A stretch of 64,000 nucleotides of DNA from a virus (lineage: Duplodnaviria; Heunggongvirae; Uroviricota; Caudoviricetes), in IMG/VR virus record IMGVR_UViG_3300035501_000173; one strand, given 5' to 3'. The position numbers and the translations under genes are program-made. The notes beneath the pieces were generated by a model, which worked only from the letters and a program-made list of their open reading frames with translations, was not told where the DNA came from and made no database searches. This document shows positions 11,734 to 62,566 of this stretch, one piece after another (within the stretch, counting starts at the first letter, position 1; the number at the start of each line of letters is the position of its first letter).

Positions 11734-11734
11734 T

Positions 11735-12820
11735 ATGGCAGGATGTATGAATAAAAATGATAGAGGATACCAGTCGTTAAGTAGAATGGCTGGTATCCCT
11801 TCTATGGTATTAGACGTTTATTGTCAAAAGTATTTAGATTCATTTAATAGATTACCTAACTTAGATGAATTACCCCTTGTGGATTCATCTAAGCATTTAA
11901 ATGAATCTTTAAAAACAAAATAGATTGGAGATTCAAGTTTTGCTAGTAATGAAGCTATACAAAAAACTACAGGAGCACAGTCCTTAGGAGAAGCGCAAGT
12001 AAAGCTTAATAATACGTATAGAGATTTACAAGTAAACTTAGTGGAAGTTACAGATAAATCATCTTTACTTGAAGTATAGCATAGACCTAGTGTATTTAAA
12101 GAACTTAATCAAGAATATACAGGGGAAAATTTTGATGTTCAATCTGATACTGACAAACGTGTAGTTCTGCGAAATATGCTTGGTAAACTAAAAGATTTTT
12201 ATGGCATTAAAATTAATGAAGTTACGTCTAAACAATTATGTGAAGGTGACTTTGCTAATATAATACCAGATGCTAAAACCGCTAAAGCCTTTATTTATAA
12301 TAACGAAATATATATAAATACGGATATTGCAGATATAGATGCACCTATACATGAATTAATGCACATATTTTTAGGTGGTATGCGCTATACTAATCCGACT
12401 ATATATTTTAATTTAGTGTCTAAAGCATAGCAGTTTAAGAATTTACAAAGTCTAAGTAAGGTATATCAAGATAGAACTCAATCTGATTTTTTAGAAGAAG
12501 CTTTTGTTTCAGAGTTTTCTAAGCTTTGCGCTGGTATGCACAGTGAATTTGATTCTTGGTCTGCTGAGGATCTTAACCCGTTATTATATGAAGTCCGTAG
12601 AAATATGGACTCAGCTTTAATGGGTAATAAAAGTGTTAATAGTATTGATCCTAATGAACTTTTTAAAGCAAGTTTCTTAGATATTGCTATGCGCACAAAA
12701 TCTCCTGAATTAAATAGAAGCGATTTTAGTATTCTAAATCTCGCTGAATTACATAGACAGAATGCGAATATTAAATCTAAGATGCTAAAAGATGGTGACT
12801 TAGTTGAAAAATGTGATTAA
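11735..12820 (+). CDS. 361-aa protein with an HExxH zincin-like motif (…DAPIHELMHIFLGG…). It carries 3 in-frame TAG codons and a TAA stop. Possible metallopeptidase.
   Basis: The ATG lies 1 nt after the gene-1 stop. Track ORFs 11735, 12176 and 12536 share a frame and are separated only by TAG. The HELMH motif was seen in the translation. Confidence 0.55.
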
Positions 12821-12822
12821 GT

Positions 12823-15800
12823 ATGGCTTGTAAATTTATATATAAAGGCAATAGAGTTTTTAATTCTGAAATTGCACTTGATGAGTTTCTTATTAATAGT
12901 AAGAAGTATTAGGAAGGTTCTGATATTGTATTTGAGTTAAGTACAATTTAGAAACAGCGGGGTGCTAGAATTAAACAACGTGGTAAGGCAGCTGATAAGT
13001 TAATTACTCATAATCCTGTAATATTTGATACAGATTTATTCGAGGATTATGAAATGAATGAGTTCGGTTCTGATAACTATGGCGTTACATTCGCTCTTAA
13101 ATAGTATGTAGATGCGGAAGGTCACCCACTTTTTCCTATATTTAATCTGGAAAACTACTGGCAACATAAAATGCCAGACTGGTAGAAACAAGAATATTGG
13201 ACTAAAGGTTATTAGGATGATACAGGTGAAGTACATAAATGTGATAAGTACGAGTATCAAGCTGTTTGGGGAGATAAAGATCCTAATGATATTACAGCAG
13301 CTCCTACTAATGACTAGTTGGAAGTTGGTAAAAAAGTAATGGAGAGAGTTTGGCCTATGCAAGGTTTTATGGGTACTGGTGTACATAGAATGATTGCAGC
13401 TTATTGGAAATGCTAGACAGCTCATAAAGGTAGGGCTAGTGCTACACAAGTTAAAGCAGAAATGACCAAAGCTCTAGATTTTCAATTAATAGGAAGTGGT
13501 AATAACAATCCTTTATTATCAGAATTTAAAGGCATTAAATACTCAGATTTTCTTTCTGATAAAGTAGATGATACTTACTCAAAATGTAGAGCTATTCACG
13601 ATGAACTTAATTCAAAGTTTTTAACAGATGAGTAGCGTAAATCTGGTATGGAATTGTATTTCTTACCTGAAACCGCCATTACTACAGAAGTTGATGACTT
13701 TGAACATCCCGATAAGAAGAGAAACTTATTGGGTAATGTAGACTTATTTGTAATTGATCCGTCTGGTAACATTCACATTATTGACTACAAAACTTCACCT
13801 AAAGAATATAATGAGTACAACTCAGCTAAAATTAGAACATTCTACTATTAGTTAGCTACCTATAGACGTTTGACAGAGCGTATGGGTTTTGCATTAGACC
13901 ATAATTCTAATGTGTATGTAATACCTATTAAGTTTGAAAACTTCTAGATTGATCCAGAACAAACTGATGTTACAAAGCTTTGTAAATTTGATAATCTTAA
14001 ATTACGTGAGGGAAGTTCTGGTATTTTAGAGCGTTTGGAAGTTAAGGCAAGTCTTAGTTCTACAGGTGTAAACTCCGATACTATTAATAGTAACTTGGAT
14101 AAAATCATTCCTATTAAGAATACTAAAATCATGGCTGATGGTGATATTCTGGATGATGTTAAAACTTAGATGAAAGCCTGGTTTCCAAGTTTCGGTAAGT
14201 ACAATGAAATTACTAAAGAGTATGTTGTCAAGATGCTTAAACGTAAAGGTCGTGATAAGATAAATCCGAACAGTTTGAAATATACTTATAAGGTTGGTAA
14301 GAAAACTGTAATTACTGATAGCTTTGAAGCTCTTGTAGATGGGGTATACTAGGAATATTAGAAGATGGAAGAACACGTTATGGATAGAACTTAGGGTGTT
14401 AAAACCATCTTACAAGAAGCTATAAATAATAAGGAAAATGTAGTCATTGATACAGGATATGCTCATAGCTCTCGTAAATTTGCAAGAGAAAGTTATCTAG
14501 AAAATTTGTTAAACCCTTATACTACTGGAGAATATGAAATCCTTGATGATTATAATGAAGCCACAGAACGTCTTGGAATAATATTACTTAAAAATATACA
14601 TACCAATAAAATTGATGTATTAGTAGTAGATACTAGTAAACATGCTTTTGATGATGAAATAGCACTAGGTGGTACTGAGAATAGTCCAGGACGTAATAAG
14701 ACTTTAACAGGAACTTTTATTTCTGATGTTACTGCAAGAAATAAACCTAATGAGCTAGTACTTGATAGTACTTATGGTAATATTAGAATGATGGAAGTTA
14801 TGTAGGCTTTAAATAATATGTCTGCTTTATTTAATAGTGATTCCGCAGGAATGGAATCTACATTAGGAGAGATTAAAATGTTTAATCAATTTCATAATGA
14901 TGGTTGGACAGCTTCTAATGAACAACTTCTTTACAACTTTAAAGAATTACATAAGGCTAATAAAACAGAAGACTAGATTCATTTAGGTAAGGATATAAAA
15001 ATGTGTAGTTAGCTCGATCTTATTAAGCATAGGTGTAATGAGATTATGGCAAATCCAGAACATGATAGAAAATGGAATGGTATTCAAACTGCTATAGATA
15101 ATACACAAAACTTTACAGTTAATCCTATTATACTTAAATCTCAGCTAATCGGATTAGCACATGACATTGAAGAGAAATTTAAGTTAAAGAATGATACTAA
15201 TGCTAGAAACTTGGAAGGTGATAAAGCAGAAGCATATAGTTTCTTAGCAAACTTATATTCTGCTATTGCAGAAATTGATGGTATTCATTTTAAATAGCAA
15301 ATTAAAGACCATTCTGCTTTCTTAAATTAGTCTGGTGTAAAAAGAATTTTCAAAGAGGGTTGGTCTGGAAATAGTCTTGATAATCCAGGAATGCTTGATT
15401 CTGACACCCTTAATAAGATGGGTCAACGTCTTAATGAAGCCTACTAGCTGACTCGTGACGAGATCCAAAATATTTCAAAGAAGATTTATACATTGAGTAA
15501 AAAATTGAAGGAGGAAAACAACTTCGGATATTTGAAATCTCGAACTATCGGAAATGAAGCATCTATTTACAAAAATTTATATGATGATACTTATGAAGAT
15601 GATTTAGTATTTAAAAACCCATTTGATTCTCACGGAGTAACATTGTCTGAAACTGAAAAGGAGTTTTTAAAGCAATCATTGCTTTTAATCAATCATAATC
15701 GTTATGGAGATGTAAATACTATGGATGACCTAGAATTAGCTATTATGCAGGATCCATATAAATATCTCCGAGTACCATTAACTGAGGGTACTAATGCTTC

Positions 15801-17790
15801 TAAAGTTGCATATAAAGGTATGTGGGAAACCATTAAGGAGAAGTTTAAAAACCTTATCCCTACAAAACTTAATATGCAAAGAATGTTTAAAGGTTTGCTG
15901 GTGGATGAAACTTTATTGGATAACGAGGATGTTCGTAATAAGTATCAAAATAAGGATGCGGAACTTTGGGAAATGAATACTGCATTTGATGCTGGTGAAA
16001 CTGAATAGGCTAGAAAATCCATGTTAGCTAATTATGGTAAGAATTATTTTGAGCATAATCTAGAATTACTTACCATGAAACATGCTTATGCTTATACATT
16101 AAAGAATAATATTAATAAAATATTTCCACTATTTAAAGCATGTGCTTTACAACTAGAAATGGGTGGTGCTATAATGAATACTCGTTTCGCAGAAGACATT
16201 TAGTACTTACATGACTTTATTACTAATAAAGTACTTAATATGTCTATCTAGGATCCTAAATGGAGAACTGCTTAGTACGTATGTGGTAACTTAATGTCTG
16301 GAGCTTCTAAACTAGCATTAGCTTTTAACCCAAAACAATTTTATCAAGCTATTGATGGTTTATGGAAAGATATTTCTTTAGTGATAAGACAAAATGAATA
16401 CGATCAAGCTTTCAGTCAGTAGAATATGAAAGATTCTTTCTGGTGGGTTTACAGAGATTTAACCCATAATTGGGGTGACGGTAAATCATTGGCTTAGGTT
16501 CTTAATGAATAGTATGGTATTAATGATATGGATATGAATTCCTACATTGATAAAACTAAACCTAATCAATTTGGTATCTTTAATTTGGATAATGTAATGT
16601 TCCATTTCGCGTCACGTCCAGACTTCTATAATAGAATGACTATTTTTGGAGCTCAGATGAGACATGATGGTTGCTTTGAAGCACACGACGAAGACGGTAC
16701 ATATCATTGGGAAAAAGACTTGCGCTATAATATCTATGCTAAATATTGTAAGGATGAAAGTGCTGTCCCAGCTTCTTTAAAAGCTGAATATAATAAGCAG
16801 AAAGCTCGTTATAAAGCTGCGGCTACACAATTTCAAGCAGAGGGTGCTAAATTTAAGAATTCTGATGGTGAAATGGAGGATTTTGTTGTAGACCTCTCTA
16901 ATCCAAAGCCATTACCTAGAGCGTACACAGTTAAAGAAGCTGAAAGTATTAAATCTTTAGCAGATTTAATTTATGGATATTATTCTCATGAAAAGAAATC
17001 TATGATTCAATCAACGACTGCTGGAGCTTTATTTATGCAAATGAATACATTCTGGTCTTCTAAGAAAAACTAGTGGTTTTTACCAGGAGGAGTACGTATG
17101 TAGGGTACATATGAACATTATTCTGAAACTTAGGAAGATGGAACTAAAAAGTATTATTACCAAGATGAGAATGGTAATATTACAGATTAGGAAACGGATA
17201 CACCATTCATGGTTTGGAAGGGTCGTTATTAGGAAGGAATCATGGTAACATTAGCTAATATTTTTAATGATACTTTCTATGGTGATGAAACTGGTAAGAA
17301 AGGCTTAGGTAATGCTATTGATAAGTATTGGAACGCAACTGATGAAAACCTTCGTAATGCTTATAGAAATAATTTAAAGTAGTTACTATATGATTTATTA
17401 ATGTTTCTATTCTTAGGAATGCTTATTGCACCTGCTTTAGAGAATGCTGCGAAAGCTCATGCTAAAGAAGTGGGTAATGGTGACTTAGGTGATGCTATGA
17501 TAAATAATGCTACGGTGAATTTAACTTCTATGTTATCTACATCTACAGATGATTTTAACGCACTTAAATCTATTTTTGGTAGAGGTGTACAATGGACACC
17601 ATTCTCTATATCTACACTTACAAACTCTTATTAGAGAGTAAGTTCAGCTGTATCAGGTAATAGTGATTGGTATGATGCTATTGTTAAAATGTCCGCAGCA
17701 GGAAGAACATAGGAGAATATGTTTGATTACATAAAAATAAATACACTCGGTCGAAAGATTGGAGACAATGGAGTAGTAAAAGAGGATTGA
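12823..17790 (+). CDS. Large protein of 1,655 aa translated through many in-frame TAG codons. It ends at TGA 17788-17790 and has a hydrophobic segment near its C-terminus (LLYDLLMFLFLGMLIAPAL). Function unknown; virion or cargo protein candidate.
   Basis: The ATG at 12823 follows TAA 12818-20. The frame is continuous through track ORFs 13648, 14170, 14506, 15046, 15493, 16021, 16528 and 17401, with only TAG interruptions. The first TGA is at 17788. Confidence 0.65.
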
Positions 17791-22028: not shown

Positions 22029-22961
22029 TTAGTTTGAGCTATTATTCCCAGTTTCTGGAACAAACTGTTGAGCGGTAGCGTATCCATATTTAATAAGATA
22101 ATCCTTAATTTGTTTTGCAAGAATCTGAGCTTCTGGATGTGGTTTATTACCTTTACTAGGATATGCTCTAAGATTACAGAAGTGAATCCAGTCAGATATA
22201 AAAGCTGTATGATACAATTCAGTTTTAGTATCTAATGGAAGTATTTCTCTAGCCTCTTCTGGTTTAGCTCCTAGTTCAATTAAATGTTCGTAAGCTAAAT
22301 TAGCAGCACAATTAGCAAAGTAAAACCAATCCACTTTAGATAATTTACGACTACCAGTAAGAAGTATATCAAAATACTCAAGTAGATTACACTCTTGCTC
22401 TGTAACCCATAAAGGTTTGTAGATATTTAGAGCACTCTCAGATCCAGATTTAGCATAATTACAGAATCTGGTAGACTCTTCCATAATTGAATTCTTTCTA
22501 TGTCTATTATATTCTCTAGAAATACTTATAGAAGTAGTAAAATGAAATGTAAGTCTTTTTTCAAAGTCTTCTGTAGGCTGTTCTACTAAATATTTAGACC
22601 ACTCAGACCAAGGAATTCTATTCTCTTGCAATACTCTTAGATTAGTTGTAACTAACTTATACATACGATATGTACCCTGTTCATACCAATCTACAACCTT
22701 TGTATATGGATTACCAAGAATATCTATAATAGATCCAGTTAAGGACTGCAATGGTATCTTTAAATATACAGTTCCATGTTCTAACGGCGAATAATGTCCA
22801 GAATTTATAAGATGTTCTACAAAGGGTTTAGCTGATGTTTCAGTAATTTTATCACCACTATTCCAACAACACCTTCCTACACGTTCAATCTGTTTATAAA
22901 TACCATTCTCTCCTAAATCCTGATAAACTACTTCTAATTTTGGTTCAATTAATTTAATCAT
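22029..22961 (-). CDS. thyX: Flavin-dependent thymidylate synthase ThyX.
   Basis: The ThyX signature RHRxxSxxxxSxR is present exactly as NRHRKNSIMEESTR. The HYSPLEHG-type N-terminal region is also present. Confidence 0.75.
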   Translation of the reverse strand: MIKLIEPKLEVVYQDLGENGIYKQIERVGRCCWNSGDKITETSAKPFVEHLINSGHYSPLEHGTVYLKIPLQSLTGSIIDILGNPYTKVVDWYEQGTYRMYKLVTTNLRVLQENRIPWSEWSKYLVEQPTEDFEKRLTFHFTTSISISREYNRHRKNSIMEESTRFCNYAKSGSESALNIYKPLWVTEQECNLLEYFDILLTGSRKLSKVDWFYFANCAANLAYEHLIELGAKPEEAREILPLDTKTELYHTAFISDWIHFCNLRAYPSKGNKPHPEAQILAKQIKDYLIKYGYATAQQFVPETGNNSSN

Positions 22962-22965
22962 ACGT

Positions 22966-23184
22966 CTAATAAGTATATTTAGTTTTTGCTAAAATCCAAC
23001 CCTCAGCATCAGGAAGATCTGATTGCCTTAGAATTTCATCTACAGTAAAATTATTTGCTTTAATAGAATCTTTTACAGTGGATTCTGTCCAATCCACCGT
23101 AAAAGTTTTCCGTAAAGTCATTTCTATAGTTACCTCTATTGGATTTTTCATAGTAATTATAAACTTAGAAATGTTAAAACACAA
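22966..23184 (-). CDS. Hypothetical protein.
   Basis: ORF of 72 aa. Confidence 0.4.
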   Translation of the reverse strand: MCFNISKFIITMKNPIEVTIEMTLRKTFTVDWTESTVKDSIKANNFTVDEILRQSDLPDAEGWILAKTKYTY

Positions 23185-23195
23185 GTTAATAAATA

Positions 23196-23498
23196 TTAAT
23201 CTGAAACACTTTCTTGTAGAAGTTCTGCCACTACATCAATATTGTTCATGATTTGCCAAAATATATCAACTTTTTCAGATTCAGTTTGTGAAGGCCAATC
23301 AGATAATACTATTTCGTATTCACAACGTGACCACCATTGATAACGAGCATGTCTTTCCACAAAAAGTTTAAAATCATCAAGAGTTCTTGGCTTATCACCC
23401 TCTTCTTTATAACATTTTACTAAATAAGGTATTACGTTATAAGTTTCAAACTTCTTATGATTTATATTATAAATAATTGTATTAAATGTTCTTTTCAT
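23196..23498 (-). CDS. Hypothetical protein.
   Basis: ORF of 100 aa. Confidence 0.45.
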   Translation of the reverse strand: MKRTFNTIIYNINHKKFETYNVIPYLVKCYKEEGDKPRTLDDFKLFVERHARYQWWSRCEYEIVLSDWPSQTESEKVDIFWQIMNNIDVVAELLQESVSD

Positions 23499-23499
23499 A

Positions 23500-23961
23500 T
23501 TATTCCGAATAATTTTCTAAATTACAACAAACATCATCAACAGTCCAACCAGAACAATCTTTTAACATAAGTTCTTTTTGAGAATCTGTAAGATACTTTT
23601 TCTCCTTTAAGTCTTTAGCTAATTCATGTGGTAATTCTATCTGCTCTTGCACTAGCTCTTGCAGGTCACAATCATCGAAGTTATAACTCTTATAACAAGT
23701 ACCATCTTCGTAGTCTTCCTCTACATCAACTGCATAATCTGTAGTATATACCTTAACAGTTTTACTAATAGTTAAAGACACTGTGACCTCAAGTTCTATT
23801 TCAGGTTGCTCATGCCAATTATAAGGAGCATCAGGGTCATTCCACGCCCCTGCAGGATAATAATCAGATTCTTTCATATTAAATTTAGAAGTTTTAGTAA
23901 CTGGTGTAATGTTATAAGTATTAACACAAATATTAAGTAATCTCCAGAATGTTTTTTCCAT
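23500..23961 (-). CDS. Hypothetical acidic protein.
   Basis: ORF of 153 aa. Confidence 0.5.
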   Translation of the reverse strand: MEKTFWRLLNICVNTYNITPVTKTSKFNMKESDYYPAGAWNDPDAPYNWHEQPEIELEVTVSLTISKTVKVYTTDYAVDVEEDYEDGTCYKSYNFDDCDLQELVQEQIELPHELAKDLKEKKYLTDSQKELMLKDCSGWTVDDVCCNLENYSE

Positions 23962-32213: not shown

Positions 32214-33305
32214 CATTTATGTTATCCTAAAGACTCTTTATTCTTTAGTTCTGCAGTTTCATTAGTTATATCTGCAGGTCGGACTATATCTTCTCCAACA
32301 ATATTTATAATTTGTTGGAGCAGGGCACTCGTGGTAGCATTACTATCCTCGCTAAGGACTCGGCTACTAGTCTCTGAACCTTCAAGAGTATTACTACTCA
32401 AGCTTGGCTGCTGATTGTCCACCTCTGGAGTTTCCAGCAATTCACCCTGTTTTAAGACGCCAATTATCGCTTTATATTTTTCAGATCGTTCATGTGCTTT
32501 AGTATTATGGTATGTAGTATGTTCAGAACGTGTTAGTATTTGAAGATTTTCTAAACGATTGTCTGTTTTTATTTCATTTATATGATGCACATCATATTCA
32601 TCTTTTAGAACAATCCATCCATTAACATTCTCAAAATACTTAGGATCAAACTTATCATGATTTCTTTCAATTACTAATCTATGCTGTCTAACTCTAGATC
32701 CTTGAACACTTTTATCACAGGGTTTTGGATGTCCTGGACAATACTCTAACACGTAACCTAAATTAGAAATTGTTTCTTTACCCTTAAAACTTGCATTTTT
32801 ATCACCAGTAAGTCCATATTGATGATTATTTTCTCCTAAATATGTAGTTTCTCTTAATTTGTTACTACATTCTTTACTACAACAAATTTGCGTTTTAACT
32901 TTTTTTATTCTACTAGGTTTCGCATAGAATTGGTTACCGCAAATAGGGCAAGTACAATTTAACTCAGTCTTTTTTCTAAATAAAGCTGAGCAAGTAGTGC
33001 TACAACATTGATAGGTCTTTGCACGACTCGGAGTAACGTATTCTATTTTACCACAATAAGCACATATTACTTCTATTTTATCTACAGCATTCTTTTCATT
33101 CGGTTTTCCTTTACTGTGTTCATCCGAACATTGTTTACAACAATATTTTCGATGAGCACTTTTCTTTCCTAAGAAAGTTTTTCCACAATTTAAACAAATA
33201 TATTCTACCATACTAATTTTTTTAATATGGTTAAATATAGACAATTTTATTGGAATAACCTAATAAAAATAATAAATTGTGTAGTAACTGTTAATATATA
33301 ATTTT
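32214..33305 (-). mobile_element. Group I intron (~1,092 nt) interrupting dut and carrying an HNH homing endonuclease ORF.
   Basis: dUTPase is split exactly inside motif 3 (…TPGCIDA | DYRGE…). Exon 1 ends in U (GCU), the insert ends in G, and the internal ORF is in a different frame. A stop follows AKIIY immediately after the junction. Confidence 0.6.
32222..33244 (-). CDS. HNH homing endonuclease with N-terminal Cys-rich zinc-ribbon repeats, encoded within the intron.
   Basis: HNH motif HHINEIKTDNRLENLQILTRSEHTTYHN. There are multiple CxxC pairs at the N-terminus. Confidence 0.75.
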   Translation of the reverse strand: MSIFNHIKKISMVEYICLNCGKTFLGKKSAHRKYCCKQCSDEHSKGKPNEKNAVDKIEVICAYCGKIEYVTPSRAKTYQCCSTTCSALFRKKTELNCTCPICGNQFYAKPSRIKKVKTQICCSKECSNKLRETTYLGENNHQYGLTGDKNASFKGKETISNLGYVLEYCPGHPKPCDKSVQGSRVRQHRLVIERNHDKFDPKYFENVNGWIVLKDEYDVHHINEIKTDNRLENLQILTRSEHTTYHNTKAHERSEKYKAIIGVLKQGELLETPEVDNQQPSLSSNTLEGSETSSRVLSEDSNATTSALLQQIINIVGEDIVRPADITNETAELKNKESLG

Positions 33306-39659: not shown

Positions 39660-39846
39660 AGTCGTGCTCTTCTACGTATTCTTTCATACCTTGTATAACA
39701 GTTTCTGACATAAAAGTTTGCCCTACTAACAAGCCATGTAAAGCTTCTAGTATATCAGTAACTGAACAATCTTCGTAAGCACTTTCCCATGAAAACTTAT
39801 TACTACCTATTTCTAGTGTTAATTTAGTCTTTCTATCCTCGTTCAT
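39646..39846 (-). CDS. Hypothetical protein.
   Basis: ORF of 66 aa with an ATGA overlap with nrdD. Confidence 0.4.
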   Translation of the reverse strand: MNEDRKTKLTLEIGSNKFSWESAYEDCSVTDILEALHGLLVGQTFMSETVIQGMKEYVEEHDYELS

Positions 39847-42800
39847 AGTTCTTTTATATGTTTAACTCGTTGTTCGACCTCCTGTTGCTTACCAACGTTA
39901 AATGACGTCTTGTAGTCTCCGGTTAAATAACCTGTTACACGGCGTAATCGCTTGATATTTTTACTACCACACATAGGACAAGTATCATTCAATTCATCAA
40001 TATAACCACAGTCTTGACAAGAATCATTTGGTACATTAATGGCAAAGTATGGAATATCATGATCCATTGCATAATTAACAATCTCTTCAATAGCTTCTGG
40101 ATTATGCTTAGTAGAAGCAGGTAATTCAACATAAGTTATACAACCTGCACTACTGAAACCAGTAAGTTGTGATTCAATTTCAATTTTCTCAAATGGAGTA
40201 CATTCATGCCATACAGGTACGTGCATACTATTAGTAAAGAAATCACGTTCTGTAATTCCTGGAACTTCACCAAATTGCTTCTTAAATTTCTGCATTGCTG
40301 TGTAACACAAATTTTCAGCAGGAGTATAATAAACACCAAAATTAAGTTTATAAGCTTCTTTGAATTCACTGCACCTCTTCTTAAAGAGAGCTTCTAATTC
40401 TTTAGCTTTATCCATAATTTCTGAATCAGTATGGTCTTTACCGAAAATAATTCTCAAAGCTTCTGATAATCCTAATTGACCAATAGCTAAAGTACCATGT
40501 TTTAATGCTGAACGAATACCTTCTTCAGGTTTATATCCATACATTACATTATTTTGATACATAAACTTAGCTGATGCAGCATCTTGACTACATATCCAAT
40601 CAAATCGTTCAATTAGCATATCTTTTGCTTCATGAATCTTAGTATCCAACAATTCAATAAATTTATTCCATACTAAATCCTTGATATTTATATCTGCATT
40701 ATCCATATTAGATATAGCTTGCAGTTTAGAATTCATTGCAAGTGTAGGAAGTATGATTGTAACAGGACAGATATTACCTCTACCATCTTTAAGTTGACCA
40801 AAACCATTAATATCCCAGCCATTCGCTGTCCTGCATCCCATTGTACTAAAATAAGTGCGAGGATCGTTTATATCATACCCTTCATTACCAGACCAATCTA
40901 CATTGGCATAATTAGGGTATAACCTAAGACTCGTAACCTTAGTAGCTTCTTGGAATATATCATAATTCGGATCTCCAGGTTTTCGATTAACACCTTTCAT
41001 TAATTGAACGATACAGCACGGAAAAATCGGAGTGCTATGATGGCTACCAATACCATTCTTACTTACTTCAAGTAAAGCTAGACTAATAAGACGTCCTTCA
41101 GGTTGTGTACAAGTACCATAATTAATAGAAGTGAATGGTAATTGATTACCACTTCTACTTTGTAAAGTATTTAAATTATGATACATACCTTCAACAGCTT
41201 GATGAATTTCTCGTTTAGTCATATCCAAAGCATATTCATAAGAATTGGGATGCTCTTTATACAAACTATCCTCTATAGACAAATCTGTTTGATCATACTT
41301 CTCATTACGAATATGGTCAATATACTTCAATCCAGTTCTGTAGTGCTTATTAAAAGATAGTCTTACATAAGGAACCATAGTCCAATCTAGATGAGTTGCA
41401 GACACACCACCAAATTGTTGTAAACTTTGTACTTGGAATATTACAGCTAATAATTGAAATGCTGTATTAACACTCTTAGCAGGTCTAACATCAGTTTGCT
41501 TTAGCTTAAACCCGTTAGTAAGTAAGTCGTCTACTGGTATGCTCAAACAGTTTCCTGTTACCATACATCCAGCCAAAGTAAAACTGTGAGTTTCTGGAGC
41601 TTCAACACACCAAGTTACTTGTACAGATCCAGCCGTTATTTTATCTAACCGCCATGGTTTATTTTCTTGCTGTTTAACACATAGTTGAAAATCATAATAA
41701 GTAACATCTTCTTTGTAATTAGTAGATTTTACATGCTCTCTTTTCGACCAAACATGAAACCCTGCAAGAGGTGCGGCAAATTCAATAAATTCTGCTAATC
41801 TACTATCAGTTGTAGAAATAGTATTATTTGCTTTACACCCATCTGCTGAAAAATAGCCTAAGAAAATACTAGCAATAGCATTTTTATCTAGAATATTCCA
41901 AAATTTACCTTCAAGAAAATTTTGTTTATAAGATCCATTACCTCTAGTATGAAGAGTAATATCTCCATTACTATGATGTTGTCGAATACTATAACCAGCT
42001 TTTAAGAAATTACCCAAGTATTCTACTTTATCGGAACATAGTCTTACATTCATTCCACTGTTTGTAATTCTACTTTTATCTTTAGAATACATAAAGTAAT
42101 CACAACCATCGCCTAATACAAATCCAAAACACCATAAAGTATTGTCTAATATAAAATCAGTTGTACTTACAGGCGTTAATATTAGTTTATCACCAACTTG
42201 TATATTATCAGTAATATCCCCATTACTTAAAATCCATCTATGATTTCTAGTACAGGTGACAGTTTTCTTAGTAATTCCAGCACTAAACTCTAAAGTGTAC
42301 ATTTTTTGTTTCTCATATTGATGTACCGTAGCAAATTCCCAATCTCCATTTTTATTTAGAATTTCTACAGGTTGACCGTCTGTAAAACTGTCAAAAGTTC
42401 TTACACCTCTAGAAGTTACAAACTTAGTATCATGGCTATAACAGTTGTGCATCCCCACAGCGTAAGAATCCAAATCATGAATGTATATTTCATTATTTTC
42501 ATGATTATGCTTAGCCATTTCAGACATACAATAATTAAGAGCATAATCTTTAGTTACAACTCTACCTGCTTCACCAATACGTCCACCAAATGAATGCTCG
42601 TCAATATTAGCATTTTGATTTTTTACATTAGAAGCTTCAAGTTTAGATTTAATGCCTTTAATGAGTTTATCTTTTTCAGCACGAAGCATCTTACGTTCTT
42701 CTCTATAAAGAATATAAGCTTTAGCTACATCTGGAAAATCATAATCCATTAAAAGCTCTTCAACCTGATCTTGTATATCCTCAATATTAATCTCATCCCA

Positions 42801-42941
42801 AGTTTGTACTTCATTAGTTATTTCACTAATAACTTTAGAAGCATCTTCGTATCCACACTCTTTAAATGCTGCTGAAATCGCATTTATAATTTTACTCTTA
42901 TCAAATTCAGCTAATGTACCGTCTCTTTTTGTTACTTTCAT
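39843..42941 (-). CDS. nrdD: Anaerobic (class III) ribonucleoside-triphosphate reductase with an N-terminal ATP-cone. It contains a 298-aa intein.
   Basis: ATP-cone sequence at the N-terminus. C-terminal zinc ribbon CQDCGY…CPMCG and glycyl-radical motif RVTGYL. Total length is 1,032 aa, or 734 aa without the intein. Confidence 0.85.
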   Translation of the reverse strand: MKVTKRDGTLAEFDKSKIINAISAAFKECGYEDASKVISEITNEVQTWDEINIEDIQDQVEELLMDYDFPDVAKAYILYREERKMLRAEKDKLIKGIKSKLEASNVKNQNANIDEHSFGGRIGEAGRVVTKDYALNYCMSEMAKHNHENNEIYIHDLDSYAVGMHNCYSHDTKFVTSRGVRTFDSFTDGQPVEILNKNGDWEFATVHQYEKQKMYTLEFSAGITKKTVTCTRNHRWILSNGDITDNIQVGDKLILTPVSTTDFILDNTLWCFGFVLGDGCDYFMYSKDKSRITNSGMNVRLCSDKVEYLGNFLKAGYSIRQHHSNGDITLHTRGNGSYKQNFLEGKFWNILDKNAIASIFLGYFSADGCKANNTISTTDSRLAEFIEFAAPLAGFHVWSKREHVKSTNYKEDVTYYDFQLCVKQQENKPWRLDKITAGSVQVTWCVEAPETHSFTLAGCMVTGNCLSIPVDDLLTNGFKLKQTDVRPAKSVNTAFQLLAVIFQVQSLQQFGGVSATHLDWTMVPYVRLSFNKHYRTGLKYIDHIRNEKYDQTDLSIEDSLYKEHPNSYEYALDMTKREIHQAVEGMYHNLNTLQSRSGNQLPFTSINYGTCTQPEGRLISLALLEVSKNGIGSHHSTPIFPCCIVQLMKGVNRKPGDPNYDIFQEATKVTSLRLYPNYANVDWSGNEGYDINDPRTYFSTMGCRTANGWDINGFGQLKDGRGNICPVTIILPTLAMNSKLQAISNMDNADINIKDLVWNKFIELLDTKIHEAKDMLIERFDWICSQDAASAKFMYQNNVMYGYKPEEGIRSALKHGTLAIGQLGLSEALRIIFGKDHTDSEIMDKAKELEALFKKRCSEFKEAYKLNFGVYYTPAENLCYTAMQKFKKQFGEVPGITERDFFTNSMHVPVWHECTPFEKIEIESQLTGFSSAGCITYVELPASTKHNPEAIEEIVNYAMDHDIPYFAINVPNDSCQDCGYIDELNDTCPMCGSKNIKRLRRVTGYLTGDYKTSFNVGKQQEVEQRVKHIKEL
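41550..42443 (-). mobile_element. Intein with a LAGLIDADG homing endonuclease domain, inserted in NrdD at aa 167-464.
   Basis: Begins with block A-like CYSHDTKF after the extein sequence AVGMHN. Ends with block G-like THSFTLAGCMVTGN followed by the +1 Cys. Two LAGLIDADG-like motifs are present: FGFVLGDGCDYF and LGYFSADGCKA. Confidence 0.7.
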
Positions 42942-46229: not shown

Positions 46230-46568
46230 TTAAAATGGTAGCTGGTCACGAAGTAGTTTTGTAATTTGTGCAGGCATGTCTTTTGCTTTCATACCCAAGT
46301 CTGGAAACTTTTTACACCCATCAGAAAACCACTCACAAACTAAAGAAAGAACCTCTATTAGATTGTCATCAATAGGTTCTCCCTTAGTACACATGCGAAT
46401 CACTTCGTAATGTGTTATTCCAGGTTTTTTCTGCTTAAGAGCATTTGTAAGATAACAAATAGTACTAATAAGTCCTATTTTATCTCCTAAATCTTCAGAA
46501 GCAGGAATTCCAAAGAATAATTCATGTTTTAGGCGATATTGCCAATCTTTATATCTATTCGTATCCAT
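46230..46568 (-). CDS. Hypothetical protein.
   Basis: ORF of 112 aa. Confidence 0.5.
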   Translation of the reverse strand: MDTNRYKDWQYRLKHELFFGIPASEDLGDKIGLISTICYLTNALKQKKPGITHYEVIRMCTKGEPIDDNLIEVLSLVCEWFSDGCKKFPDLGMKAKDMPAQITKLLRDQLPF

Positions 46569-47598
46569 AAGCTTTATACCAAGCGATTAATTTAAGTAAC
46601 CAGATAAATTCAACTACCCCAGCTTTATACCAGTGCTTTTTCATAGAAACAACACTACTATTAAACTTGTCTGTAGTTTCAACTACTAAAAAATTACCAC
46701 TAACAGAAGGATTTTTCAAATCATACTTATCAGCACCAAGCTGTAATAACCAAGTATAGAAAGCAATCTCTCTATAATAATGGAAATTCTTAACGGCATA
46801 ATTAAATCCATCTAAAGGCTTTCCAGTAGTTTTAACATCATTAATCACAATAGAATTATTTAATTGATCAATGGTGTAATTATCCAGTTTAGCTTTTAAC
46901 TTCATAATGAAAGGTTCTACATCAGGTAGATTTACTTCTACATCTAATAGTATAGTAGTTTCATTATAGCTAGGAAGCTCATTATCTAGAATGTCTTTAG
47001 GATGTAACAATTTCTGTATAGCTTTATTAGCTTCTATAGAACTCATTACATTCTGCAATCTATCTAATGAATTAGCATCCAAATAAATTGGCTTACGAGT
47101 ATCAGTAGAAGATTGCTCAAATTTAAACCTTTCTTTAAAATAAGGCTTGATAGTTGCTTTAACTTTGCTTAATTGATTTGCTGTTAAGAAACCATGATAA
47201 TAATCAACTGTACTAGCAGCATCTCTAATTTTTTCATCGTCAGGCAATTCTCCAGTTTTACTTGCATATCCCCAAAGTAAATCAGCCATCATTCCTACCT
47301 TAGCGGAAGGAGCTTTAACGTCTTCACAAAGGAAAAAGGTGTCAGGTTGCAAGCTGAGTTCATGCACTGCCGAACCAAAAGCTAAACTAGATGAAAACTT
47401 GTTATGTTTTGATAGCCCTTCAAAGAAATCTTTAGGACAACCTCCTTGCATTGGGTTAATTAAACCCATTCTTGAGTTACTAATGTAATCTGCATACTCT
47501 TTACCAAAATATACAGAATCATCAATATCAGTTATCTTTAAAGTTTCTACTAAAGGCTTAATAGTTACTTTAGATAACATTTGCTTATTTGGAATCAT
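46555..47598 (-). CDS. Hypothetical protein, possibly a PD-(D/E)XK (YqaJ or lambda-Exo-like) exonuclease.
   Basis: D…EVN…KLKAKLD…INDVKTTGK arrangement resembling a D/ExK nuclease core. This is a weak call. Confidence 0.3.
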   Translation of the reverse strand: MIPNKQMLSKVTIKPLVETLKITDIDDSVYFGKEYADYISNSRMGLINPMQGGCPKDFFEGLSKHNKFSSSLAFGSAVHELSLQPDTFFLCEDVKAPSAKVGMMADLLWGYASKTGELPDDEKIRDAASTVDYYHGFLTANQLSKVKATIKPYFKERFKFEQSSTDTRKPIYLDANSLDRLQNVMSSIEANKAIQKLLHPKDILDNELPSYNETTILLDVEVNLPDVEPFIMKLKAKLDNYTIDQLNNSIVINDVKTTGKPLDGFNYAVKNFHYYREIAFYTWLLQLGADKYDLKNPSVSGNFLVVETTDKFNSSVVSMKKHWYKAGVVEFIWLLKLIAWYKAYGYE

Positions 47599-48113
47599 AT
47601 TAACGCTCTAAAGTTAGGTAGTATATCTGCCTTGAATAACTCATAGGCATCTTCTATCTCATACTTATCAAGTGAATACACCCTTCCAATAGGCCCCCAA
47701 TCTTCATTAGATTCAGAATCCATAAGAAGACAGGGAACTCCAGCTAAATTCATAGCTATGAAATTAGATACAGAATCGTCTACAAAGACATCAACTCTAC
47801 CTTTAATTACATCAGCTTTGTTTTTTCGCTGGCTACATATTTGATATACAGGAGCTTCTGGGTAAGAATGCTCTTGTAACCATTGCTTTGTCCACGGTTT
47901 CGGATTAACTCGCTTACTGCAATACAAAGCTACATCAAAATTAGGTTTATGTTTTTCTGGCAAACCTAACCAAAAATCTTTGTCTTTAATCAAAACTCTT
48001 TGTACGTGTTTTGTAATTACACTATCACTAGCAGGCATACCAAATCTTTCGATATAGCATCTCCACCAGTAATTACATGTATCATCACAATCTAATCCAA
48101 TGCGTAACTTCAT
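47595..48113 (-). CDS. HAD-like phosphatase or 5'(3')-deoxyribonucleotidase-like protein.
   Basis: N-terminal sequence IGLDCDDTCNYW, with a DxDxT-like motif. Confidence 0.3.
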   Translation of the reverse strand: MKLRIGLDCDDTCNYWWRCYIERFGMPASDSVITKHVQRVLIKDKDFWLGLPEKHKPNFDVALYCSKRVNPKPWTKQWLQEHSYPEAPVYQICSQRKNKADVIKGRVDVFVDDSVSNFIAMNLAGVPCLLMDSESNEDWGPIGRVYSLDKYEIEDAYELFKADILPNFRALI

Positions 48114-48130
48114 AATTTCGTCTACAATGG

Positions 48131-48418
48131 CTAATTAACTTCTATAACTTTAAAATTCTTATTAATATCAGTTTCTACTTCTTTATCGTATGGATATACG
48201 TAAAAAGCGTGCTGCAAATCTTCCCAACAGGATTCATATTCTAATTGAAATCCTTCTTTTGTAGCCCACTTAGAACGTTTTTTATCACGTCTGCACATAT
48301 CCAAATAATGCTGAAATTCCTCCTCGAAAGTTAGAACCTCAGCATTTTGTATTTTAGGTTTACACCTATGCAGTACTAATAATTTATGTTCCTTACGATA
48401 AGTTTCATCAAAGTTCAT
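48131..48418 (-). CDS. Hypothetical protein.
   Basis: ORF of 95 aa. Confidence 0.45.
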   Translation of the reverse strand: MNFDETYRKEHKLLVLHRCKPKIQNAEVLTFEEEFQHYLDMCRRDKKRSKWATKEGFQLEYESCWEDLQHAFYVYPYDKEVETDINKNFKVIEVN

Positions 48419-49433
48419 GTTTTAACAATTGATAAAATAATGTATCAGGTAATACAACTAACTAATGATTTAAATCGTTTTCTACACTTTGCTAAATTAA
48501 AATTTCAACATCTTTTAAATCGTTTATAATATAAGGTATTTCTAACAGTTTAATTTTATTATCTTTGCAGAATTTTCTAATATAATTGTCTCGAATTTGC
48601 TAATCTTCTAATTTTAATTCTCCTCCAAACTATTTAACTGGCACATAATGCTAAATCCCATTATATTCTATAAATATATTACAGTCTGGTAAATAAAAAT
48701 CAACATAACAATATCCAGATACACGAATATCTTTTGGAGCTTGAATTCTATACTGCGAAACATAATTAATATTTAAGTTTTTTAAAACTGTTTCCACTAA
48801 AAATTCACCCTTAGACTAATTACATTTAGGACACCTTGCATGATTATGTAGGTGGTCATGAGCATTCTAAGTAATTTCTCCATGTATAGGGCAAATATAT
48901 GTAATTTTGTTCTCAATTCCAGTATATATTGTATTAGAATAATTATAATCAGGATTTAATTTCTGACATCTAGAAATAAATTCTTCTTGCGACATTAATA
49001 ATTTTTCAGATATACTTTTTCTACCACATTTTGAACATCCTTTCCCAGACAAATGATTTGCAGGATCCTGTAAAAATTCACCATGTTCAGGACATATTAT
49101 TATACCTTTAGTTCTGCAATTAATATAATTAAATTTACTATAATCATACTTATTATTATGAACTGCATTAGCATCTTTTATAAAACTATCTATATCTTTA
49201 GCTCTATCATTACTTAGTTTCTAAAATTTACATTTTGGGCAACCCTAGCCTTTTGTATGAGCATCCGGTGTTTGCCAAAATTCTCCATGTTCATTACCAT
49301 TAACGTCAAGTTCATGACAAATTATACACACTTTATCTTTTTTAGTATGATACTCAGCTTTAGAATAATCATATTTATTACCATGAGCTTCCTAAGCCTA
49401 CTCTACAAATTCAGCGGTTGTTAACTTTCTCAT
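48408..49433 (-). CDS. Freestanding homing-endonuclease-like protein with tandem Zn-ribbon repeats and a C-terminal Vsr/DUF559-like PD-(D/E)XK domain. It is written with about 11 in-frame TAG sense codons.
   Basis: Manual translation through TAG gives MRKLTTAEFVEqAqEAHGNKYDYSKAEY…CIICHELDVNGNEHGEFWQTPDAHTKGqGCPKC, with the repeat (NKYDYSK…HGEF…GCxKC) occurring three times. The C-terminus reads GYCYVDFYLPDCNIFIEYNGIqHYV…IRKFCKDNKIKLLEIPY. There is no TAA or TGA until 48408-10. Confidence 0.55.
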
Positions 49434-49959
49434 TTTTTAATAAATTGTATAAAACCTCTTTGGGCAATATTACATAATCAGTAGATATAGAATTAACTTT
49501 TTGTTTCCTCCAAAATACAACTAATGGTCTATCCTTTAAAGGGCAACCTTCAGTAATGGTTTCAATATTTGGAGTATTTAAAGTTGCTTTACATTGAATA
49601 TAAAATGGAAGTTTATCTTCAGTTTCAGCAATATCTACCTTAGAGTTATCTAAATTTCTATCTTGGGATCTAGAAGATACTAATCCTGCATAACCTAATT
49701 CGGTTAATTCTTTGATAATATCTAGTTCAAATCTATTTCCTTTAGATTTACTCTTTTTTGCTTGATAAGCCCTAAATGTAGTGTTATCAACCCATTTACA
49801 AGAAATTTTATCTTTCTTACCTGTAGAACCTTCTCTAGATTTATTACATCTAATTTTAATAGATGCCTCTGACAATCCAGATTCAGTGCTTGCAGCTACT
49901 AAATTGGGATAAGTTTTTACAACACCATCTTTATAGGTAATAATTACACTGGTATTCAA
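49411..49959 (-). CDS. Hypothetical protein, possibly a nuclease or DNA-binding protein.
   Basis: ORF of 182 aa with the segment KGNRFELDIIKELTELGY. Confidence 0.45.
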   Translation of the reverse strand: MNTSVIITYKDGVVKTYPNLVAASTESGLSEASIKIRCNKSREGSTGKKDKISCKWVDNTTFRAYQAKKSKSKGNRFELDIIKELTELGYAGLVSSRSQDRNLDNSKVDIAETEDKLPFYIQCKATLNTPNIETITEGCPLKDRPLVVFWRKQKVNSISTDYVILPKEVLYNLLKNEKVNNR

Positions 49960-50978
49960 TTCTTTCTATGATTTCTTAGCCATTTTATAAATTGAGTTAT
50001 TAAATCAAGTGTGAGTTGTCGTCCTCTATTCTTATACAAGTCACTAATATCTTTTGCTTCATACTTTCTAGGAATCCATGTATAAATAAGTTCTGGATGT
50101 GCCTGCTTAATTTTTCGCATACCAGTCAAACCTGCTAAATCGTTATCATAAAGTACTACAATATGCTTGAAACGCTTTTTTAATTGTTCCAATACTGTAT
50201 CAGAAATAAAGAGATTTTCACTATTAGGAGCAATAGCATTAATCCCAAACTCATACAACAACATGCAGTCCTTCATAGACTTCGTAATTACTAGCAGATT
50301 ACCTTTCTTAGGAAGCATTTCAAAACCCTGTATTTTCTTAGCAGGCCAATTAGTAAGAAATCTAATACCACTACTTTTATTTTGTGGATAATAGATTCTC
50401 CATAATTCTTTACCGTCTAACTTGCCTCCATAATATCCAAACACTCTCATAGAAGAAGTAACAATACTAAATAAATTATCATTAAGGAATACAGACTTAC
50501 AAGAAAACACTCTAAACTTATTTAGAGTCTTCTTAGTAATACCATATTGTAACCACCAATCTAATTCATCTTTAGTATAGTCCTTTATCTCTACTTGAAT
50601 TTTAGACTTACCTGCATCTTCAAATTTTTTAGTATTTGTCGTGCGGATTCCAGGGTTTACTTGTAAGTGCTTAAACGACTTTAAGCCTAAGTCATTAGCA
50701 ATGGTACACAGAGCTTGATAAAATGTCAAGTCATGTATAGCCATTACTAATGAAAAGCAACTATAAAAATCTCCTGTTGCAAAGTCATGTAAGTATAACT
50801 CACCTTTACTATTGCGATAAAAACCACATGTAGGTTTATTATCATTTCTTAGTCTACTTCGTATCAGTTTCTTACTAATATTAGGTATTCCTAAGTAATA
50901 ACAGAATATTTCTTCCTCAGTAACTTTTGATAAGATAAATTCCTTAGTTATAGATTCTCCAAATGTAAATTCAAACAT
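49956..50978 (-). CDS. DnaG/TOPRIM-like DNA primase.
   Basis: C-terminal TOPRIM DxD motif VVLYDNDLAG. N-terminal Cys/His cluster CGFY…H…C. Confidence 0.4.
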   Translation of the reverse strand: MFEFTFGESITKEFILSKVTEEEIFCYYLGIPNISKKLIRSRLRNDNKPTCGFYRNSKGELYLHDFATGDFYSCFSLVMAIHDLTFYQALCTIANDLGLKSFKHLQVNPGIRTTNTKKFEDAGKSKIQVEIKDYTKDELDWWLQYGITKKTLNKFRVFSCKSVFLNDNLFSIVTSSMRVFGYYGGKLDGKELWRIYYPQNKSSGIRFLTNWPAKKIQGFEMLPKKGNLLVITKSMKDCMLLYEFGINAIAPNSENLFISDTVLEQLKKRFKHIVVLYDNDLAGLTGMRKIKQAHPELIYTWIPRKYEAKDISDLYKNRGRQLTLDLITQFIKWLRNHRKN

Positions 50979-62361: not shown

Positions 62362-62416
62362 GTTGGGGGAAGTGTGGGAATCGAACCCACATTATATACC
62401 ATACTTCCAAAATACC
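62362..62416 (-). ncRNA. tRNA-like acceptor/T-arm minihelix or a tRNA 3'-half remnant. It is not a complete tRNA.
   Basis: Minus-strand read is GGAAGT-ATGGTATATAAT-GTGGG-TTCGATT-CCCAC-ACTTCC. This is a perfect T-arm with the TTCGATT loop and a 6-bp acceptor-like stem. No D-arm or anticodon arm lies within a plausible distance. Confidence 0.3.
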
Positions 62417-62566
62417 TTTCTGCCTAGTATTTCTACTATTCTGATACCTATTTAAATTGCGCAATTTTCTCGGTCAGTACCAGTAAAAGACTCCCTACGA
62501 TTTAAAGCTTATTACGTAGTTTACCGTCTTTGCAATGCCGTATGAGATTTCCCAGCGATACCCTTA

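Follow-up and report, generated by a model that had tools for sequence, protein, structure and literature searches.

Introduction

The freestanding homing endonuclease genes of T-even phages (segA-G and mobA-E) move without the help of an intron and carry flanking markers along by co-conversion; they encode GIY-YIG or HNH enzymes in the standard code, and the timing of their expression comes from promoters and messenger RNA (mRNA) structure. Here, we describe a gene at 48408-49433 on the minus strand of a 64,000-nucleotide stretch of DNA, hereafter the window, from a virus of the class Caudoviricetes (IMG/VR record IMGVR_UViG_3300035501_000173). This is probably a freestanding mobile homing endonuclease gene, combining zinc modules of the DUF723/DUF4379 type with a Vsr-like nuclease domain, whose translation would depend on suppression of amber (TAG) codons and whose product would thus be made late, a timing that we infer. 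Like the T-even seg and mob genes, it lies between conserved genes and overlaps them, occurs sporadically in close relatives and has been transferred together with a flanking allele, yet its timing would come from the genetic code.

Among Vsr-like homing enzymes, I-Bth0305I comes from a group I intron, and its DNA-binding region differs from that of the window endonuclease. Unlike this 'EDxHD' Vsr-like enzyme (PDB 3r3p), the window protein is freestanding and carries three tandem DUF723/DUF4379 zinc modules, and sequence-profile searches against the PDB gave no link between the two. Described relatives within the same protein family, PHROG 559, include gp274 of Salmonella phage Munch and g123 of Yersinia phage fHe-Yen9-04, which share 32-40% identity with the window protein over their full length (tblastn E values down to 1e-56) and show the same repeated NKYDYS...C..H...GC.KC modules followed by DFYLP...IE.NG.QH. 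Phages with PHROG 559 members often carry several copies per genome, as expected of homing endonuclease genes. The members in Munch and fHe-Yen9-04 differ from the window gene in that they use the standard code, with CAA or CAG at their glutamine (Gln) sites, and they are labelled 'HNH endonuclease'.

A link between homing endonucleases and stop codon recoding has been proposed for the TGA-recoded Agate phages, where an endonuclease encoded in a group I intron of an early gene prefers the recoded stop, and where in-frame stops were suggested to hold back the endonuclease until late in infection (Borges et al., bioRxiv 10.1101/2021.08.26.457843). The TAG-preferring genes of crAss-like phages in that study were limited to lysis genes, a tail tube gene and one family of unknown function (Borges et al., bioRxiv 10.1101/2021.08.26.457843). 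Within the crAss-like phages, the Zeta group has genomes of 145-192 kilobases (kb) with many introns, inteins and endonucleases, and TAG or TGA is reassigned mostly in late genes (Yutin et al., PMC7886860). In the literature on crAss-like phages, no description of a recoded endonuclease gene of the kind reported here was found. The Agate and window genes are alike in being selfish endonuclease genes with many recoded stops inside a standard-code early region and in their proposed late production. They differ in that the Agate gene is intron-encoded and reads TGA as tryptophan, whereas the window gene is freestanding, reads TAG as Gln, belongs to a large Zeta-type crAss-like gut phage and encodes a Vsr-like fold; moreover, comparison with a near-identical strain without the window gene gives direct evidence of its mobility.

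Reading frame and meaning of TAG

Translation of the window from ATG 49433 on the minus strand runs through 341 sense codons to a TGA at 48410-48408. The original prediction had put the number of sense TAG codons at about 11, and exactly 11 are counted, at codons 12, 14, 63, 71, 189, 206, 261, 268, 278, 314 and 324 (first bases 49400, 49394, 49247, 49223, 48869, 48818, 48653, 48632, 48602, 48494 and 48464). It had also named TAA codons, TGA codons or frameshifts as signs of a pseudogene; none is present across all 341 codons. When the region of this open reading frame (ORF) was shuffled 20,000 times, no shuffle was free of TAA and TGA in the endonuclease frame, the mean being 25 stops, and the remaining five frames hold 13-50 TAA or TGA codons each. 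A 341-amino-acid protein (P0001) called with TAG as Gln from an independent Logan assembly is identical to the endonuclease, while near-identical DNA among cultured or GenBank phages was searched for with the window and gave no match.

The meaning of TAG was examined by aligning the endonuclease with 126 homologues, six of which come from cultured standard-code phages with annotated DNA, namely Salmonella phage Munch, Klebsiella phages KP13-7 and BUCT_47333, Yersinia phage fHe-Yen9-04, Flavobacterium phage FpV4 and Escherichia phage ECO103. Gln makes up 27% of the homologue residues at TAG sites versus 2% at other sites where the window protein lacks Gln, and no enrichment of gaps was found at the TAG sites of this alignment. 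Two of the sites are near-invariant: at TAG codon 189, 116 of the 126 homologues have Gln, and at TAG codon 261, which falls in NG-I-Q-H of the nuclease domain, 109 of 113 do, among them the proteins of Munch, KP13-7, fHe-Yen9-04, FpV4 and ECO103. Thus, the proposed check of whether TAG sites align to Gln returned residues, mostly Gln, and not gaps or stops. A syntenic orthologue in the related locus L001 (57% identity) has CAA or CAG at window TAG codons 63, 189, 206, 261 and 278, while Gln54 of the window, written CAA or CAG, is TAG in L001; only codon 12 is TAG in both. This comparative evidence shows that TAG means Gln in the endonuclease gene.

It could be argued that the TAG codons are real stops in a decaying pseudogene, the dead remnant of a past invasion, considering that the standard code would place 11 breaks in the gene and that homing endonuclease genes commonly degenerate after fixation. 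This is very improbable. Around 25 TAA or TGA codons would be expected at a guanine-plus-cytosine (GC) content of 27%, yet every stop in the frame is the very codon that the phage reassigns, and TAG falls in near-invariant Gln columns. In addition, the zinc ligands and conserved nuclease residues are all intact in a confident structural model, and, of two 99%-identical strains, one has the gene and the other does not, a sign of recent mobility.

TAG use in the two coding regimes of the window

The window contains two regions of opposite orientation with different use of TAG. On the plus strand, at 208-17790, 78, 3 and 35 TAG codons must be read as sense for ORFs of 3,841, 361 and 1,655 codons, respectively, to be open; these giant ORFs presumably represent the crAss-type virion RNA polymerase/transcription block, and the first of them continues beyond its first ATG in the upstream direction, as far as the edge of the window. 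Amber suppression is implied because the ORFs of 3,841 and 1,655 codons carry 78 and 35 TAG codons. On the minus strand, at 17852-63017, about 70 genes are devoted to DNA metabolism, with products including a DnaB-like helicase, primase, PolA, the anaerobic ribonucleotide reductase NrdD, DNA and RNA ligases, a Dda-like helicase and an exonuclease VIII-like protein. The nearest named relatives of PolA belong to Crassvirales and related contigs measure 150-180 kb, and the phage fits the Zeta group of crAss-like phages.

The endonuclease gene lies within the minus-strand region but uses TAG like the plus-strand one. Its fraction of Gln-type codons written as TAG is 0.55 (11 TAG versus 9 CAA or CAG), compared with 0.39 in the giant late ORFs of the plus strand (p = 0.24). 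The other 69 minus-strand ORFs, with 13,558 codons in total, contain 408 CAA or CAG and 12 TAG, a marked difference from the 11:9 of the endonuclease gene (Fisher p = 7e-11), and 11 of these 12 TAG codons are accounted for by spurious 5' extensions and by short tails read through from a genuine TAG stop. The statement of the original prediction that the gene lies among standard-code genes thus holds for the contrast in TAG use, but not strictly, as the neighbouring rusA-like gene has a TAG at codon 6 and several neighbours stop at TAG.

Mobility and the swapped tract

For a comparison of presence and absence among relatives, 86 loci were collected with the neighbouring primase as probe. One of these, L009, an IMG/VR contig of 5.8 kb, is nearly identical to the window on both sides. 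By blastn, positions 1-3352 of L009 match window 53323-49972 at 99.1%, and positions 3850-4907 match window 48454-47396 at 99.4%. Between the matched blocks, L009 has 497 base pairs (bp) that hold a resident rusA-like segment without the endonuclease gene and with nothing alignable to the window. The corresponding part of the window is a swapped, co-converted tract of 1,517 bp (48455-49971, minus strand) that holds a foreign rusA-like allele together with the endonuclease gene. The left flank of the tract lies in the last codons of the primase gene (49956-50978, minus strand), which is TAG-free and matches PHROG 12622 at 7e-51 and Toprim. The right flank is represented by a small downstream gene (48110-48418, minus strand; 95 amino acids to TAG 48131, or 102 to TGA 48110 with read-through), which is 99% identical in L009. 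The mobility that the original prediction had proposed to test in this way is hence borne out by a 99%-identical relative without the gene.

The rusA-like gene of the window (49411-49983, minus strand) encodes a Holliday-junction-resolvase-like or PDDEXK_15 nuclease of 190 codons from ATG 49983, as judged from matches to PHROG 244 (1e-11) and, weakly, to Pfam PDDEXK_15. The L009 protein is only 47% identical to it. When compared with alleles of the sub-clade, L009 shows 80-87% identity versus 41-47% for the window, whose closest allele among those compared is that of L001 (52.6%). Apart from the window, L001 is also the only locus with the endonuclease gene at this site, which is absent in all other related loci examined.

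The right-hand junction falls within the endonuclease ORF itself. The C-terminal tail of the ORF, LPDTLFYQLLKHEL (48411-48454, minus strand), consists of 14 residues, the last 13 of which are shared with the end of the L009 rusA-like protein, IPDTLFYQLLKHEL*. The tail lies within the right-hand 99.4% block, has low scores in the predicted local distance difference test (pLDDT 47-61), and its counterpart in the L001 orthologue has 79-83% DNA identity to the rusA-like 3' ends of other genomes. The last 14 codons accordingly derive from the resident rusA-like gene that was replaced; they are fused in frame and lie outside the endonuclease fold. The possibility that the nuclease domain is homologous to the rusA-like protein was dismissed, the only similarity between the two being this recombination remnant. 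The mobile unit is the rusA-like allele plus the endonuclease gene, and it replaces the resident allele to ~45 bp before its stop. Such a tract resembles the footprint that would be expected from endonuclease-driven double-strand-break repair with co-conversion of flanks.

The swapped tract also bears on where the gene came from. The original prediction had suggested acquisition from a fully recoded relative; the import by recombination is supported, but a fully recoded donor is not, as the imported rusA-like allele has a single TAG. Rather, the donor would have had the same two-code architecture, since this single TAG is conserved and related replication blocks are otherwise TAG-free. A related scenario is that the gene was recently imported from a relative reading TAG as Gln in all its genes, so that its TAG codons have not yet been removed and the gene is effectively mis-coded. 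While arrival by recombination and a GC content of 27%, slightly under the 29-34% of the neighbours, would agree with this, it is improbable: the co-imported rusA-like allele has four CAA codons beside its one TAG, none of ~85 related loci has a generally recoded replication block, and TAG-rich orthologues or paralogues occur among TAG-free neighbours in four other genomes of the clade. Furthermore, the recipient itself reads TAG as Gln, and removal would therefore be unneeded.

Protein family and domain structure

The homing-endonuclease-like nature of the protein was established by a profile search, in which residues 1-314 matched PHROG 559 (E 1.1e-65), and phmmer retrieved 7,865 homologues from a large protein collection. 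Among 50 sampled homologues, Pfam scans identified DUF4379 ('probable treble clef zinc finger') in 49 and DUF723 in 48, with CapR in some. The endonuclease itself gave nothing in Pfam at E <= 0.01, and its Pfam family membership rests on its homologues for this reason. NCBIfam and PDB sequence searches with the endonuclease returned nothing significant, and a profile of the 50 homologues gave no match to PDB sequences.

In the translation, the three NKYDYSK...C..H...GC.KC modules and the motif DFYLPDCNIFIEYNGIqHY (q being encoded by TAG) were both found where the original prediction had seen them. An alignment-based AlphaFold model (mean pLDDT 91.6) shows three zinc modules, each a beta-hairpin plus helix with pLDDT >90, followed by an alpha/beta domain. 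The ligands of the modules follow a C-x2-H...C-x2-C pattern and form invariant or near-invariant columns in alignment A1. Module 1 (49230-49385, minus strand; residues ~17-68) has C39, H49, C65 and C68 and contains TAG codon 63 in G-q-GCPKC, module 2 (49026-49160, minus strand; residues ~92-136) has C114, H117, C133 and C136, and module 3 (48822-48956, minus strand; residues ~160-204) has C181, H184, C201 and C204 and holds TAG codon 189.

The C-terminal domain (48480-48812, minus strand; residues ~208-318) has a Vsr-like alpha/beta PD-(D/E)XK nuclease fold, with D245 in DFYLP, E254 and N256 in IEYNG, and q261-H262. It was identified by fold comparison alone, and the earlier Vsr/DUF559-like assignment is right at the level of fold. 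PF04480 (DUF559) did not match the endonuclease but is present in one distant homologue, P0112, the motif being D245...E254-x-N256...Q261-H262. No HNH Pfam match was obtained and the sole nuclease-like domain by fold is PD-(D/E)XK, so the database label 'HNH endonuclease' for PHROG 559 appears to be a misnomer.

The gene is considered freestanding, as predicted, because Rfam detected no intron at 47-51 kb; the only group I intron is at 32251-32536. The endonuclease is a separate ORF overlapping the ends of both neighbours, its ATG 49433 by 23 nucleotides with the 3' end of the upstream rusA-like gene and its stop by 11 nucleotides with ATG 48418 of the next gene, in a co-directional, tightly packed array.

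A conserved amber codon in the rusA-like gene

The rusA-like gene of the window begins MAKKS-TAG-KELNTS, with its sole TAG at codon 6 (49968-49966) in addition to four CAA codons. One TAG at codon 3-9, just ahead of the LNTS motif, is found in 30 of 33 distinct alleles (relatives L001, L010-L037 and L050-L079), even though the alleles share only 37-55% identity with that of the window. Elsewhere in these alleles, only two internal TAG codons occur in total. In 22 alleles, no ATG, GTG or TTG follows within 20 codons past the TAG, and the TAG is kept even where the gene has no overlap with the primase gene. L009 has CAA at the TAG position.

This positional conservation may reflect a selected 'amber gate' on a core nuclease within a standard-code block. 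A broader, tentative reading is that, in this clade of large crAss-like phages, amber codons deliberately time-lock the translation of DNA nucleases whose genes are transcribed along with the replication genes, for which the rusA-like gene would be the clearest case and the DUF723-type endonuclease genes would carry the same lock. No signal was found to set the endonuclease gene apart from its operon: sigma-70-like promoter sites were at chance level (23 versus 21.7 expected) and no terminator was detected, and the Bacteroidetes -7 motif TAnnTTTG was likewise at chance level (91 versus 94 expected), so that both searches are uninformative about an own promoter. Because no promoter or terminator signal distinguishes the gene, it is by default assumed to be transcribed together with the replication genes.

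Endonuclease genes in related replication blocks

DUF723-type genes are found in five replication blocks and all five have several TAG codons, namely 11 in the window, 3 in L001, 10 in L032, 9 in L081 and 4 in a partial copy in L009. They occupy at least four different insertion sites: in addition to the site shared by the window and L001, L032 has a paralogue between the primase and rusA-like genes, L009 has one inside the exonuclease gene, and that of L081 is located at another site. Among 626 non-redundant replication-block genes, the rusA-like/endonuclease cluster is by far the richest in TAG. A TAG within the first 14 codons is present in four of five full-length DUF723-type genes as well as in one GIY-YIG and one LAGLIDADG gene. 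GIY-YIG genes have 0-3 TAG codons each, with at least one in four of five.

GIY-YIG/NUMOD3 and LAGLIDADG_3 genes with TAG were observed at L015 8831-9499 and L036 3590-4654 (equal to L038 1094-2158). The GIY-YIG/NUMOD3 gene lies between the primase and rusA-like genes and has TAG at codons 5, 75 and 84, and the LAGLIDADG_3 gene has TAG at codons 12, 105 and 263. In L009 (4705-5769), the exonuclease VIII-like gene is broken after residue 75 by another DUF723-type gene with 4 TAG codons, and in L033 (9028-10296) a gap of 237 nucleotides divides it at that residue as well; neither split gene gave an intron match at the Rfam gathering score. The exonuclease VIII-like gene of the window (46555-47598) is uninterrupted. 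L033 also encodes, at 7049-7615, a rusA-like nuclease in which a DUF723 zinc module replaces the usual N-terminal domain, which suggests that the module is an exchangeable DNA-binding domain. A 631-amino-acid ORF with two TAG codons in L028 was set aside, its N-terminal extension being spurious.

Proposed mechanism and timing

The features above can be combined into a model of how the gene would be expressed and spread. Before suppression, host release factor 1 (RF1) would end translation at codon 12 and leave an 11-residue peptide. Once suppression is on, presumably through a tRNA-Gln(CUA) encoded outside the window, the full 341-residue enzyme would be made. The enzyme is predicted to bind DNA via its three zinc modules and to cut rusA-like alleles without the gene in co-infecting relatives, and double-strand-break repair would then copy the endonuclease gene and the adjacent rusA-like allele into the cut genome. 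Of the mechanisms put forward in the original prediction, the best supported is that the gene is expressed only after suppression has begun, which would make its product a late one. The alternative wording, that recoding is not strictly late-gene-specific, is true as a description, and the rusA-like neighbour with its conserved amber codon falls under it too.

The TAG codons may not have been selected as a timer, however. It is quite possible that they reflect neutral permissiveness: a dispensable gene that is not needed before suppression would not be purged of CAA/CAG-to-TAG changes and would drift to the equilibrium of late genes, late synthesis then being a by-product. In agreement with this, the TAG fraction of the gene is statistically equal to that of the late genes, TAG and CAA or CAG swap freely between the window and L001 orthologues so that positions differ, no TAG precedes codon 120 in the L081 copy, and other endonuclease classes are mostly TAG-free, contrary to a general selected rule. 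Random placement would, on the other hand, seldom give a TAG in the first 14 codons of four of five DUF723-type genes (a rough estimate of ~3e-3 with the window and L001 counted as one lineage), and the strong conservation of a single amber codon in the adjacent rusA-like gene points to selection for amber gating in this block. Whether the TAG codons are a selected timer or a neutral build-up, late-only synthesis would be the same.

Several observations weigh against late production by amber suppression, or against its being selected. The 'early block' is defined by gene content (primase, DnaB-like helicase, PolA, NrdD and ligases) and TAG avoidance alone. TAG positions are poorly conserved among orthologues, which fits neutral drift as well as selection. 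Only one of nine LAGLIDADG genes in the relatives has an internal TAG, and an HNH_3 ORF of the window (32222-33211, minus strand, 329 amino acids), located in a group I intron (32251-32536, minus strand; Rfam RF00028, 70 bits), has 0 TAG among 13 Gln codons. The view that all homing endonuclease genes in such blocks are recoded was rejected on the HNH_3 gene and the eight LAGLIDADG genes without internal TAG, and late gating is for the same reason no general rule for selfish nucleases here. Finally, the search for an amber suppressor transfer RNA (tRNA) was negative for the 64-kb window, which has only tRNA-Gln(UUG) and tRNA-Glu, as well as for 25 related loci and for three loci retrieved via a gene of the window's tRNA region; for the source genome this search covers the window only, and ~100 kb of the genome lies outside it.

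Other features of the window

Five minus-strand genes stop at TAG, at 36329, 46555, 48131, ~33886 and ~22963. In four TAG-stopped replication genes, a TAA or TGA follows 2-8 codons downstream, and read-through after the code switch would add a short tail only; the Dda-like helicase (stop 36329) alone would be lengthened further, by 43 residues. Apparent amber gates at codon 7 of ORFs 22029-23009 and 23196-23537 were rejected as spurious 5' extensions, a proper ATG following each TAG. ORF 22029-23009 is ThyX-like by eye from its motif.

The NrdD-like gene (39843-42941, minus strand) encodes 1,032 amino acids against a PHROG profile of ~718 positions that is matched in two stretches, and the L001 NrdD orthologue has a weak Intein_splicing match. 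The gene of the window is likely to contain an intein; an in-frame element of this sort in an early gene should be free of TAG, and none is present.

A tRNA-like minihelix is located at 62374-62420 (minus strand), within the non-coding segment 62330-62566 between tRNA-Glu and tRNA-Gln. It consists of GGAAGT, 12 nucleotides, a T-arm (GTGGGTTCGATTCCCAC) and ACTTCC-CCCA. Rfam gave a sub-threshold, 17-nucleotide match to the T-arm of transfer-messenger RNA (tmRNA; 15.5 bits), and ARAGORN made no call. Possible identities of the minihelix are a fragment, a divergent tmRNA-like element or something linked to the code switch.

Implications

The proposal of Borges et al. had rested on one TGA case. 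The endonuclease described here adds an independent example of a selfish gene in a standard-code early region that is written in the late code, and does so for another stop codon, another order of phages and another nuclease family. The 99%-identical strains with and without the gene, together with their exact junctions, constitute a tractable pair for testing whether the code switch times homing. For annotation, mixed-code gene callers that apply one code per block would fragment the endonuclease gene and truncate the rusA-like nuclease. If the rusA-like amber codon is a real gate, it would provide more direct sequence evidence than any to date that selection keeps recoded stops for regulation. 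If the time-lock holds more widely, stop recoding in these phages would time single genes post-transcriptionally within an 'early' operon, beyond its role as a block-level property of late genes.

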